Sequence record: PQ493298
Direction: 5' to 3' (one strand)
Length of the DNA: 64,000 bases
DNA from: Escherichia phage EPIMAM01
This document shows, one piece after another, positions 35,950 to 37,642 of this stretch (positions within the stretch are counted from its first letter, which is position 1; every line of letters starts with the position of its first letter). The notes beneath the pieces were generated by a model. That model saw nothing but the letters and a program-made list of their open reading frames with translations. It ran no database searches and was not told where the DNA came from. A program made the position numbers and the translations under genes.

Positions 35950-36250
35950 TGCGGCAACCTTGTCGGGGTTCCACCTGCTAAGGCAAGTGTTTGTACGAAA
36001 CGCCGGGATTCGAACCCGGTTATTAAGCAGTTGACGCTACTCAATATTTTTAAAAGGCCATATCTCGACCATATCCGAACGTTCCGTCAAAAACGCTACT
36101 CGGCTTACGGCAAAGATATTTCCTCGAATCGATAATTCTGTGCGCCGTTTCTGCTGTGATGTAAGGGGACATTAACAGATCGTAAAGATTTGTTAATGCC
36201 AGTCCTTACCCAGGGAACATCAGTCCGACGACTTACCGGTAGCGACCCGG
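35950..36250 (-). ncRNA. Region likely encoding small stable RNAs of the tRNA operon (T4 species 1/2-like)
   Basis: No ORF; tRNA-like T-arm (accgggttcgaatcccggcg) and GC stems; position downstream of tRNA-Arg as in T4. Confidence 0.4.
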
Positions 36251-36254
36251 TTTC

Positions 36255-36605
36255 TTAATATTCTTTTAAAGCATCAATCTGTTCACGGCGTTTACGCCAT
36301 AAATCAATTGCTTCATACGCAGATTCAGCATTTCGAATTAGTCGGCATTTGTGTAAAGACTTGTGATTTTGATATTGCGTAGATAACGAAATTTTATCTA
36401 AAAGGTCTTTACGTTCAAAGTATTCGTAACCATCTAAGCCAAATGAACGATTTTTGAGAAATTGCCAATGACCATATTCGTTTTCGACATAAACATAATC
36501 CGCATGTTGATAAAGCAAATTAATTACACGTTCAGAAATAACAGTGTCATTGTGATTAAAATAAAATGTTAAATCATGAACTACTAAATAAACATTACCT
36601 TTCAT
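36255..36605 (-). CDS. Hypothetical protein embedded in tRNA operon
   Basis: 116-aa ORF; GAGGAAA Shine-Dalgarno directly after tRNA-Arg 3' end. Confidence 0.5.
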   Translation of the reverse strand: MKGNVYLVVHDLTFYFNHNDTVISERVINLLYQHADYVYVENEYGHWQFLKNRSFGLDGYEYFERKDLLDKISLSTQYQNHKSLHKCRLIRNAESAYEAIDLWRKRREQIDALKEY

Positions 36606-36621
36606 ATTTTCCTCACTTAAT

Positions 36622-36697
36622 TGGTCGAGGCAGTAGGGATCGAACCTACGACCTAGGACTTAGAAGGTCCTTGCTCTTCCTTCTGAGCTATGCCCCG
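36622..36697 (-). tRNA. tRNA-Arg (anticodon UCU)
   Basis: Cloverleaf folded by hand; anticodon loop CUUCUAA; encoded CCA. Confidence 0.8.
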
Positions 36698-36701
36698 TAA
36701 T

Positions 36702-36777
36702 TGGGGTGACCGATGGGGGTCGAACCCATGACTACGAGAATCACAATCTCGAGTTCTACCAACTGAACTACGGCCAC
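36702..36777 (-). tRNA. tRNA-His (anticodon GUG)
   Basis: 7-bp acceptor, D-loop with GG, anticodon loop UUGUGAU, T-loop TTCGACC; no encoded G-1. Confidence 0.65.
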
Positions 36778-36870
36778 ATTAATACCTACTCCAACAATCA
36801 AGATGTCTTCACACGAAATTAAGAGAAGAGTGATCAGTTCAACCCTATAATCGCGTCAAGTAGATATTAA

Positions 36871-36886
36871 TGTGACAGTTGTCACA
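36871..36886. repeat. Palindrome TGTGACA-gt-TGTCACA in tRNA spacer
   Basis: 7-bp inverted repeat with 2-nt centre. Confidence 0.4.
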
Positions 36887-36890
36887 AATT

Positions 36891-36965
36891 TGGCGGACGT
36901 GATAGGATTCGAACCTATAACCAATCGCTTAACAGGCGATCGCTCTGCCATTGAGCTACACATCC
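36891..36965 (-). tRNA. tRNA-Asn (anticodon GUU)
   Basis: Canonical stems: D-stem GCTC/GAGC, anticodon stem ATCGC/GCGAT, loop CUGUUAA; CCA encoded. Confidence 0.8.
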
Positions 36966-36969
36966 AAAT

Positions 36970-37055
36970 TGGTGGGGAGTGATGGAGTCGAACCACCCGA
37001 GTCGCAATGACAATGGATTTACAGTCCACACCGCTACCTCTACGGGATAACTCCC
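36970..37055 (-). tRNA. tRNA-Tyr (anticodon GUA), class II with long variable arm
   Basis: Anticodon loop CUGUAAA; long variable arm; CCA encoded. Confidence 0.65.
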
Positions 37056-37069
37056 CTTAATTCTTAATT

Positions 37070-37144
37070 TGGTGGCCCTGGGTGGAATTGAACCACCATC
37101 TGGCGATTATGAGTCGCTTGCTTGAACCTTCCAGCTACAGGGCC
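37070..37144 (-). tRNA. tRNA with CAU anticodon (Ile via lysidine, as in T4, or Met)
   Basis: Anticodon loop CUCAUAA; sits at the position of T4 tRNA-Ile after tRNA-Thr. Confidence 0.7.
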
Positions 37145-37145
37145 T

Positions 37146-37221
37146 TGGTGCTGATTGACGGAATCGAACCGCCGACCTTCTCATTACAAGTGAGTTGCTC
37201 TACCTACTGAGCTAAATCAGC
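37146..37221 (-). tRNA. tRNA-Thr (anticodon UGU)
   Basis: Anticodon loop CUUGUAA; adjacent to CAU tRNA (dimeric precursor arrangement). Confidence 0.8.
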
Positions 37222-37226
37222 AAAAC

Positions 37227-37316
37227 TGGCGGAGGCGATAGGATTTGAACCTATGAGTCGTCGGAGCGACTGCCGGTTTTCAAGACCGGTGCATTAAACC
37301 ACTCTGCCACGCCTCC
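37227..37316 (-). tRNA. tRNA-Ser (anticodon UGA), class II
   Basis: Anticodon stem CCGGU/ACCGG, loop CUUGAAA; long variable arm. Confidence 0.8.
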
Positions 37317-37318
37317 AG

Positions 37319-37392
37319 TCTCCATACAAGGATTTGAACCTTGGACCTCCTGATCCCAAATCAGGCGCTCTACCAAACTGAGCTACACGGAG
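37319..37392 (-). tRNA. tRNA-Pro (anticodon UGG), CCA not encoded
   Basis: Anticodon loop UUUGGGA; 2-nt spacer to tRNA-Ser (Pro-Ser dimer as in T4). Confidence 0.75.
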
Positions 37393-37402
37393 TAAATTAA
37401 AT

Positions 37403-37476
<74 letters not shown>

Positions 37477-37481
37477 AAATT

Positions 37482-37568
37482 TGGTGCGAGAAGTGGGACT
37501 CGAACCCACAAGGAAATCATTCCGCAGCATTTTAAGTGCTGTGCCTTTACCAATTTGACCATTCTCGC
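37482..37568 (-). tRNA. tRNA-Leu (anticodon UAA), class II
   Basis: Anticodon stem CAGCA/UGCUG, loop CUUAAAA; long variable arm. Confidence 0.8.
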
Positions 37569-37569
37569 G

Positions 37570-37642
37570 CTGAGAATAAAGGACTCGAACCTTTGCATCC
37601 TGGAATCAAAATCCAGTGCCTTACCAACTTGGCTAATTCCCA
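37570..37642 (-). tRNA. tRNA-Gln (anticodon UUG), CCA not encoded
   Basis: Anticodon stem CUGGA/UCCAG, loop UUUUGAU; 1-nt spacer to tRNA-Leu (Gln-Leu dimer as in T4). Confidence 0.75.

Follow-up and report, generated by a model that had tools for sequence, protein, structure and literature searches.

The genes for the Tyr, Asn and His tRNAs of Escherichia phage EPIMAM01 as probable functional components of a T2-type tRNA locus

In phage T4, the annotated tRNA region reads Gln-Leu-Gly-Pro-Ser-Thr-Ile and continues with segB, Arg, rnaD and rnaC. The tRNA regions of T2L, RB1 and RB3 were sequenced by Brok-Volchanskaya et al. (NAR 2008, PMC2330249), who found no segB there but genes for tRNA-Met(CAU), Tyr, Asn and an isoacceptor of Arg. 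According to the same study, in which tRNA-His is mentioned nowhere, SegB drives the exclusion of a region of ~1250 bp with Met, Tyr, Asn and Arg in crosses of T4 with T2L, and its preferred 27-bp site was mapped wholly within the tRNA-Asn of T2L, with weaker sites in most tRNA genes. An association of segB with tRNA genes has also been noted across phages (PMC13096335).

For one of these tRNAs, a function during infection has been worked out experimentally. The defence system Septu PtuAB cuts the variable arm of tRNA-Tyr, in the host and T6 copies alike, and plating of T6 on Septu is restored either by overexpression of the phage tRNA-Tyr or by SegB-driven amplification, while deletion of the tRNA region sensitises T6 to Septu and T4, which has no tRNA-Tyr, cannot escape (Chihara et al., Nat Commun 2026, PMC13096335). 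T2 and T6 carry nearly the same tRNA-Tyr but differ in their Septu sensitivity (PMC13096335), from which we conclude that tRNA-Tyr is not the sole factor. By the same logic, the tRNA-Tyr of T5 counters retron-Eco7 (Azam et al. 2024, PMC11555353).

Here, we compare with these systems the tRNA region of Escherichia phage EPIMAM01 (sequence record PQ493298), analysed within a stretch of 64,000 nucleotides that is called the window throughout. On the minus strand, ARAGORN places 11 tRNA genes in the interval from 36622 to 37642, and 11/11 reach the gathering score of the Rfam family RF00005 (cut-off 29 bits), which bears out the cluster of 11 tRNAs claimed by the first-pass annotation of this DNA. 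According to ARAGORN and Rfam, the order on the transcript is Gln-Leu-Gly-Pro-Ser-Thr-CAU-Tyr-Asn-[113 nt]-His-Arg, and the spacer length of 113 nt between Asn and His, as given before, proved exact (Table 1). ARAGORN and the covariance model, the scans by which that annotation had proposed to judge its calls, both recognise His, Asn and Tyr as tRNAs of the canonical bacterial type, even though the class II tRNA-Tyr with its long variable arm scores barely above the cut-off. The span assigned to the three on first pass, 36702-37055, was correct at its start and 1 nt short at its end, which ARAGORN places at 37056.

Two further features of the locus can be specified. The CAU-anticodon tRNA has tRNA-Ile(CAU) as its top E. 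coli match (81.6% across the full length) and, despite the ARAGORN label Met, is most likely a tRNA-Ile2, i.e. a lysidine-type tRNA that would read AUA. The 116-aa ORF belongs to phrog_3355 (E = 5.8e-53), a PHROG family with no assigned function; for the flanking ORFs, no Pfam match was found and the PHROG matches were only to families of unknown function.

Table 1. Features of the tRNA region and its surroundings, with positions in the window
Feature	Position	Strand	Basis
Core tRNAs that T4 also has: Thr, Ser, Pro, Gly, Leu, Gln	37146..37642	-	ARAGORN; blastn 96.3% to T4
CAU-anticodon tRNA, T2-type allele	37070..37144	-	ARAGORN label Met; 47/75 identical to T4 tRNA-Ile
tRNA-Tyr (GUA), class II, long variable arm, A73, CCA encoded	36970..37056	-	ARAGORN; RF00005 30.2 bits
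tRNA-Asn (GUU), G73; carries preferred SegB site as mapped in T2L	36891..36965	-	ARAGORN; RF00005 74.1 bits
Structured leader RNA 5' of tRNA-His	36778..36890	-	Folding, covariation, covariance model
tRNA-His (GUG), C73, CCA encoded, T at -1	36702..36777	-	ARAGORN; RF00005 62.8 bits
tRNA-Arg (UCU), T2-type allele, not that of T4	36622..36697	-	ARAGORN; 48/76 identical to T4 tRNA-Arg
116-aa ORF between tRNA-Arg and rnaD, part of T2-type allele	36255..36605	-	ORF list; phrog_3355
rnaD	36140-36255	-	blastn with T4 rnaC and rnaD: 98.6% and 88% identity
rnaC	35994-36132	-	blastn with T4 rnaC and rnaD: 98.6% and 88% identity
Block without T4 homology, in place of T4 Ile'-segB-Arg	36256..37133	-	blastn versus T4; T4 annotation; T2 layout

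The whole cluster is 99.8% identical to that of Escherichia phage UGKSEcP2, the annotation of which includes all 11 tRNAs, and 96-98% identical to many other Tequatrovirus genomes; judged by its sequence, we assign the window phage to Tequatrovirus. In blastn comparisons, homology to T4 starts upstream of Gln and extends at 96.3% over 617 nt (window 37748-37133), ends 12 nt inside the CAU gene and resumes at 36255, which is the start of rnaD. The divergence of the CAU and Arg genes from their T4 alleles (Table 1), together with this break in homology, indicates that the block in between is an alternative allele and not an insertion. As such, the earlier statement that the first seven tRNAs and Arg follow T4 is right with respect to order but not with respect to the alleles of CAU and Arg, and the view that Tyr, Asn and His were inserted into a canonical T4 set has to be given up in favour of an exchange of the whole block, of which the window carries the commoner version. 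That T4 itself has none of the three was correctly stated, as seen from its annotation and by blastn.

The same arrangement of CAU-Tyr-Asn-Arg followed by the ORF, with near-identical sequences, is found in T2, and no segB homolog is present at the locus or elsewhere in the 64-kb window, so that the locus represents the segB-less T2-type allele of Tequatrovirus. Compared with T2, where Asn and Arg are 4 nt apart, the window contains one discrete extra piece of ~193 nt, made up of the leader and tRNA-His. The alleles are mosaic: T2 is without Thr, T6, in which Thr-CAU-Tyr adjoins segB, is without Pro, Ser and Asn, and in Tequatrovirus TB004 the leader has remained after the loss of His. In a collection of 50,697 phage records, counted at a coverage of at least 80% of the query, the Tyr-Asn pair occurs in 395 records, the Tyr-Asn-spacer-His arrangement in 186 and a full-length T4-type segB in 126. 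The T2-type allele is hence the commoner one (395 versus 126), and the eight-tRNA layout of T4 is the minority state.

The tRNA-Asn of the window is identical to that of T2 at 75/75 positions and contains, at 36906, the SegB-enhancing motif GATTCGAAC; given the lack of segB, the window phage is thus a predicted recipient of SegB conversion. One could take this a step further and imagine that the accessory tRNAs are largely passengers, namely mobile cassettes or landing pads for homing endonucleases, the presence of which reflects the traffic of selfish elements. The mosaic alleles of T2, T6 and TB004, the homing endonuclease gene that directly follows tRNA-His in phage CW742, the SegB sites in Asn and, in weaker form, in most tRNA genes (PMC2330249) and the association of segB with tRNA genes across phages (PMC13096335) would all be in line with such a scenario. 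We nevertheless consider it unlikely, as the sequences are strongly conserved with base pairs maintained by compensation, as the same tRNA-Tyr family is found in unrelated phage groups and on plasmids, and as a function has been demonstrated for tRNA-Tyr (PMC13096335).

This latter gene deserves a closer comparison. The tRNA-Tyr of the window is identical to that of T2 at 86/87 and to that of T6 at 85/87 positions, with no difference from T6 in the variable arm, and to E. coli tyrU at 61/87 positions. Further relatives occur in rV5-like phages (95.7%) and T5-like phages (~84%). With blastn, no match was found on the E. coli chromosome, and matches of 94% were found on plasmids of 72-110 kb in 269 genomes, with 82/87 positions identical between the window gene and the tRNA-Tyr on E. 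coli plasmids. One such plasmid carries an Asn-Tyr-Thr-Ser cluster that adjoins genes for a DNA ligase and an integrase. The identity set of E. coli tRNA-Tyr comprises the GUA anticodon, the discriminator A73 and a long variable arm, and the window gene, with its 3' end ...CCCC-A-CCA, has all of them. The identity-set table used for E. coli tRNA-Tyr was that of PMC9976931.

By its agreement with T6, the gene is a close relative of the T6 tRNA-Tyr that was tested against Septu. Among the three tRNAs, the one experimentally supported link to phage defence would therewith appear to be that of tRNA-Tyr to Septu PtuAB and retron-Eco7, through dosage. A counter-defence role has been demonstrated in near-identical genes and is, by analogy, predicted for the gene of the window.

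The tRNA-Asn matches E. coli asnT at 47/76 positions and tRNA-His matches hisR at 60/76 positions, and from these comparisons none of the three phage genes is a recent copy of a host gene. With its GUU anticodon and G73 (3' end ...GUCC-G-CCA), tRNA-Asn carries the identity set of its E. coli counterpart. All three are G34 decoders of NAY codons, just as the first-pass annotation stated, and each has the only anticodon that the host possesses for the respective amino acid, so that they add amount and no new reading capacity. The eight T4-type tRNAs, in comparison, are all specific for codons that end in A and are seldom used by E. coli; in the window, AUA and AGA reach 13.1 and 11.5 per thousand, respectively.

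Codon usage was determined from 89 ORFs of the window, which have a GC content of 35%. Asn accounts for 6.08% of the residues (78% AAU), Tyr for 4.70% (79% UAU), His for 1.75% (74% CAU) and Asp for 6.37% (77% GAU). In E. coli K-12, Asn makes up ~3.9%, Tyr ~2.8% and His ~2.3% of the residues, and the share of NAU codons is 45-57%. Measured against this usage, Asn and Tyr are in higher demand, whereas His is not, and the earlier idea of a codon demand can thus be kept for the former two only. Since T4, with a comparable codon bias, is able to grow in the absence of Tyr, Asn and His, any benefit from supply must be conditional. From our point of view, the replacement of depleted tRNAs fits the data at least as well as codon adaptation does.

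It could still be argued that the trio only raises the decoding of the abundant AAU, UAU and CAU codons and has no role against defence systems, for which the codon bias just described and the single tRNA-His gene of E. coli (median one place per genome) can be put forward. We rate this explanation as somewhat unlikely, as the phage anticodons are those of the host and read no new codon, Asp shows the same bias with no tRNA-Asp being present, His shows no enrichment, T4 lacks all three genes at an unchanged composition, and direct experiments assign a defence role to the near-identical tRNA-Tyr of T6 (PMC13096335).

The anticodon loops of Tyr (CUGUAAA), Asn (CUGUUAA) and His (UUGUGAU) do not differ from the loops of E. 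coli tyrU, asnT and hisR, and hence 3/3 are the host's version and not a nuclease-insensitive variant. All three retain, as UGU at positions 33-35, the U33-G/Q34-U35 sequence that is the substrate of colicin E5, and the phage copies are therefore predicted to be cleavable as well and not protected. The first-pass annotation had proposed that the trio buffers the phage against anticodon nucleases of this type, which cut at Q/G34-U35. In general terms, a link to tRNA-depleting nucleases is reasonable. The E5 version, however, is unsupported, and we consider it the weakest of the four rival explanations and highly improbable. It is true that Tyr, Asn and His are all E5 substrates by their anticodons, as colicin E5 cuts tRNA-Tyr, -His, -Asn and -Asp (PMC1635277), that van den Berg et al. 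(eLife 2023, PMC10264068) proposed the same hypothesis for coliphage tRNAs, and that Asn, His and Asp are direct neighbours in Edwardsiella phage PEi20. In the window, however, tRNA-Asp as the fourth target is missing from the cluster, and with loops like those of the host the phage copies would be cut too, so that dosage alone could help. Moreover, colicin E5 is an imported bacteriocin for which our literature search found no report of an anti-phage function, and the known defences that target tRNA-Tyr cut the variable arm instead (PMC13096335).

The third tRNA, tRNA-His, differs from that of the host at its 5' end. There is a T at position -1 (36778), the acceptor stem runs from G1-C72 to G7-C66 and is followed by C73 and the encoded CCA, and E. 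coli hisR has G at -1. An alternative register with G36777 as -1 was ruled out, as U8, A14, G18, G19 and the 5-bp T stem fix position +1, and the observation made on first pass that no G-1 is encoded therefore stands. The bacterial identity pair G-1:C73 is hence absent with only C73 in place, whereas GUG and C73 are both present and invariant among 14 distinct members of the family. In the alignment of these 14 members, the cloverleaf is paired in 99.3% of the cells, 14/21 pairs show compensatory changes and 0/500 shuffles reach the observed score; invariant are G1-C72, U2-A71, G3-C70, C5-G68, C73 and GUG.

A T at -1 is also found in Karamvirus, Jiaodavirus, Kanagawavirus, Winklervirus and Mydovirus and in one mycobacteriophage, and all sampled members of this family of phage tRNA-His genes carry T instead of G here. 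In several clusters, this T is the only nucleotide between the preceding tRNA and His. A pattern scan of IMG/VR picked up host-like as well as phage-like 5' halves of tRNA-His, with counts that are biased by the pattern and by relatedness: among distinct genes within tRNA clusters, -1 was T in 8 and G in 2, and 15 isolated, host-like copies all had G.

In E. coli, G-1:C73 is the main determinant for HisRS (PMC5499578, PMC9976931), and tRNA-His without G-1 is charged >100-fold worse (PMC5499578), so that His as a mere source of supply becomes doubtful. Some organisms, however, charge a tRNA-His without G-1 via the anticodon (PMC9976931). Retron Eco2 cuts the tRNA-His of T5. We know of no nuclease specific for tRNA-Asn or tRNA-His that is countered by phage copies. 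A literature search on phage tRNA-His and G-1 returned nothing relevant, which is no proof that the matter is undescribed.

Possible answers to how a tRNA-His without G-1 could be of use are a charging that is poor but sufficient at high expression, a retention of U-1, or a role outside of translation. With regard to the last, one could speculate that this tRNA is not mainly a substrate of translation but a decoy or sponge for a nuclease or another enzyme, or a regulatory uncharged tRNA. This would agree with the T at -1 across the sampled family as opposed to the G of the 15 host-like copies, with the loss of the main HisRS determinant at its >100-fold cost (PMC5499578) and with the low demand for His codons (1.75%). 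On the other hand, GUG, C73 and the upper acceptor pairs are invariant and as in E. coli, which is expected if HisRS and the ribosome still read the molecule, charging through the anticodon is known from some organisms (PMC9976931), and poor kinetics could be offset by high expression. We therefore regard a decoy or regulatory function as quite improbable.

The 113 nt in front of tRNA-His fold into a 5' hairpin (36871-36886) and a closing stem of 13-14 bp (36858-36870 with 36779-36791), which encloses ~66 nt with inner hairpins and the 3' arm of which ends at -2 of tRNA-His (MFE -30.4 kcal/mol, z = -2.95). This leader is conserved in Karamvirus, Jiaodavirus and Winklervirus, where it lies within the tRNA cluster and in most cases separates Gln from His, and it is also present in one Gelderlandvirus and one Vequintavirinae phage with no His gene behind it. 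An alignment of 10 sequences yields a consensus of four helices (alifold, pair counts) with 98% of the cells paired and compensatory changes at 9 pairs; 0/500 shuffles reach the observed score, and the pairing drops to ~37-51% when the partners are slid. Several pairing positions are predominantly G-U, which means that the structure can exist only on the tRNA-sense strand, and the covariance model scores 110 bits in sense and 18 bits in antisense orientation. The closing stem stays the same throughout, whereas for the interior there are several structured versions that are unrelated to one another, and all that PEi20 has of the element is a bare hairpin. With the covariance model, one copy is detected in the window and none in T4, T2 or T6, and other viral contigs contain copies of greater divergence. 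A scan of IMG/VR with the pattern TTGACGCG N{26,46} CGTGTGAAG gave 73 loci, only four of which are real (L020, L039, L058 and L083), the remaining ones being chance matches.

Known elements do not account for this leader. A comparison of 36778-36890 with Rfam gave no match even at E <= 1. A relationship to rnaC or rnaD was rejected, as blastn detects no similarity and both RNAs are present separately downstream (35994-36255). In the PeSL (promoter-early stem-loop) cassettes of T4-type phages, a sigma-70-type early promoter lies inside an inverted repeat. Such a reading was rejected as well, as the minus strand of 36778-36890 has no promoter-like site, a -35-like TTGAC box is not conserved in the Jiaodavirus copies and the structure is strand-specific. 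Finally, no counterpart of the closing stem was found in front of tRNA-Gln, where the folds of the window, T4, T2 and T6 give only an 11-bp hairpin (z = -1.6).

Our best guess is that the leader acts as a processing element that would have to be cut or opened before RNase P reaches tRNA-His at its 5' end, as the closing stem leaves just one leader nucleotide unpaired. Alternatively, it could represent a small stable RNA comparable to rnaC and rnaD. Taken to its furthest consequence, the tRNA-His of large virulent phages might constitute a distinct class without G-1, accompanied in Tevenvirinae by a dedicated structured leader, in which 5'-end formation and aminoacylation, or a non-translational role as decoy or sensor, differ from the host and of which the leader would be an undescribed family of processed RNA. 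We offer this idea with considerable reserve and hold it to be doubtful.

Taken together, we consider it probable that Tyr, Asn and His are functional tRNA genes of a common T2-type Tequatrovirus locus that raise or restore tRNA pools, and that T4 represents a rarer alternative spread by SegB. The locus would consist of Ile2(CAU)-Tyr-Asn-[leader RNA]-His-Arg-ORF, and during co-infection SegB would cut within tRNA-Asn and convert it to Ile-segB-Arg. The three tRNAs would raise or restore the amount of decoders that exist with a single anticodon for their NAY codons. In the case of tRNA-Tyr, the phage dosage would compensate for host tRNA-Tyr destroyed by Septu PtuAB or retron-Eco7, as shown in near-identical genes. 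It is plausible that Asn and Tyr additionally supply a phage proteome rich in both amino acids and with a strong NAU bias (74-79%). The role of His is uncertain: it may have been acquired separately as a cassette of leader and tRNA, the stem of which would serve as the processing element that is probably cut before RNase P acts, so that G+1 would be the first nucleotide of the tRNA, which the host HisRS presumably charges, if only poorly.

The presence of the three tRNA genes is thus real but already known, since they are annotated in hundreds of genomes, the T2-type allele was described in 2008 and tRNA-Tyr was dissected functionally in 2024-2026. What the comparison corrects is the bias of taking T4 as the reference, given that its set of eight tRNAs is a minority allele attributed to a homing endonuclease and the version with 10 or 11 tRNAs is the usual one among sequenced relatives. 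The window phage further joins those in which tRNA-Tyr is predicted to counter Septu and retron-Eco7, and it is a predicted recipient when T4 converts the locus by means of SegB. The G-1-less phage tRNA-His family and the covarying leader RNA without an Rfam family look under-described, and this histidine cassette is the only part of the locus that could raise a new question, namely how HisRS uses a tRNA without its main identity element and what role the leader plays.

In comparison with known systems, the closest one is the tRNA region of T2L, RB1 and RB3 (PMC2330249), which like the window lacks segB and has CAU ('Met')-Tyr-Asn-Arg and a small ORF in place of Ile-segB-Arg. T2 shares with the window the tRNA-Asn and tRNA-Tyr sequences, identical or differing at one position, and the same 351-nt ORF after Arg, but it lacks the insert of leader and tRNA-His between Asn and Arg and has an ORF where the window keeps tRNA-Thr. 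With regard to defence, the tRNA-Tyr of T6 that acts against Septu (Chihara et al., PMC13096335) is matched by the window at 85/87 positions including the whole variable arm, although, unlike in T6, a window without segB provides no SegB-driven amplification in cis; the relationship to the T5 system against retron-Eco7 (Azam et al., PMC11555353) is that of ~84% identity to the tRNA-Tyr of T5-like phages. The nuclease-evading phage tRNAs (PMC10264068) and the tRNA-Lys of T5 that acts against PARIS (PMC11464382) follow a like logic of replacing host tRNAs, but in contrast to anticodon-loop variants (PMC10264068) the window tRNAs have the loops of the host and no resistant variant, so that they could be of benefit only by quantity.

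For the histidine cassette, two comparisons can be drawn. The tRNA-His of some alphaproteobacteria and protists has no encoded G-1 either; there, it is combined with A73 and a co-evolved HisRS (PMC9976931), whereas the phage tRNA has C73 and a GUGGC acceptor end like that of E. coli and would have to rely on the HisRS of its host. The stable RNAs rnaC and rnaD of T4 (species 1 and 2) resemble the leader in being conserved, structured non-tRNA RNAs inside a tRNA transcription unit, but the leader has no sequence similarity to them, is absent from T4, T2 and T6 and, unlike them, is placed immediately 5' of a tRNA, its closing stem extending as far as -2.

The 113-nt spacer that separates tRNA-Asn from tRNA-His is a conserved structured RNA. 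Its closing stem of 13 – 14 bp, which in the window terminates at position -2 of tRNA-His, is accompanied by compensatory changes in five Tevenvirinae genera and one Vequintavirinae phage, while the interior of this leader is structured yet variable among relatives. Rfam holds no family for the spacer, and the leader is not present in T4, T2 or T6. From the locus of the Tequatrovirus Shigella phage TB004 (L010, 806-930), in which the full leader is retained with 100% identity but tRNA-His is gone, with a GTG before Arg as its sole remnant, it can be concluded that leader and tRNA-His are separable. In Enterobacter phage CW742 (L093, 529-690), a gene with a homing endonuclease annotation lies immediately downstream of the leader-tRNA-His cassette, which is a further example of endonuclease-tRNA linkage.

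Coordinates of the features in and downstream of the tRNA cluster
Feature	Position	Strand	Remark
CAU tRNA	37070-37144	-	labelled Met by ARAGORN and most GenBank records
Asn-His spacer, conserved structured RNA	36778-36890	-	closing stem and compensatory changes
116-aa ORF, phrog_3355	36255-36605	-	PHROG without assigned function; between tRNA-Arg and rnaD/rnaC
rnaD and rnaC	35994-36255	-

Position -1 of tRNA-His (36778 in the window) is T instead of G, and T is likewise found there in all sampled members of the phage tRNA-His family (besides the window, the comparison loci L005-L015, L103, L117, L157, L163 and L190), which retains C73, the GUG anticodon and the E. coli-like GUGGC acceptor end. 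Isolated host-like copies of tRNA-His carry G at this position.

For tRNA-Tyr, no match was found on E. coli chromosomes, and E. coli plasmids of 72 – 110 kb (269 genomes) carry a tRNA 94% identical to that of the window. These plasmids are probably phage-plasmids, since the plasmid tRNA-Tyr resides in an Asn-Tyr-Thr-Ser cluster adjoined by DNA ligase and integrase (L019; NZ_CP024264.1, 3921-4471). The Tyr-Asn pair, which T4 lacks, is also present in Escherichia phage T4_ev240 (LR597657.1) despite its name; this phage is either non-T4 at the tRNA locus or a recombinant.

The first-pass annotation had noted that the Tyr, Asn and His tRNAs of the window all decode NAY codons, a pattern resembled by Edwardsiella phage PEi20 (L011, 293-773), whose tRNA locus consists of three tRNAs, Asn, His and Asp, all of them queuosine-family NAY decoders. 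The CAU tRNA, whose top E. coli match is tRNA-Ile(CAU) (81.6%, full length), probably carries lysidine and reads AUA, as T4 tRNA-Ile does, even though the two are identical at just 47/75 positions. A terminator-like hairpin (35943-35920) follows rnaC. In T4, rnaD and rnaC come straight after Arg, whereas in the window the 116-aa ORF intervenes.
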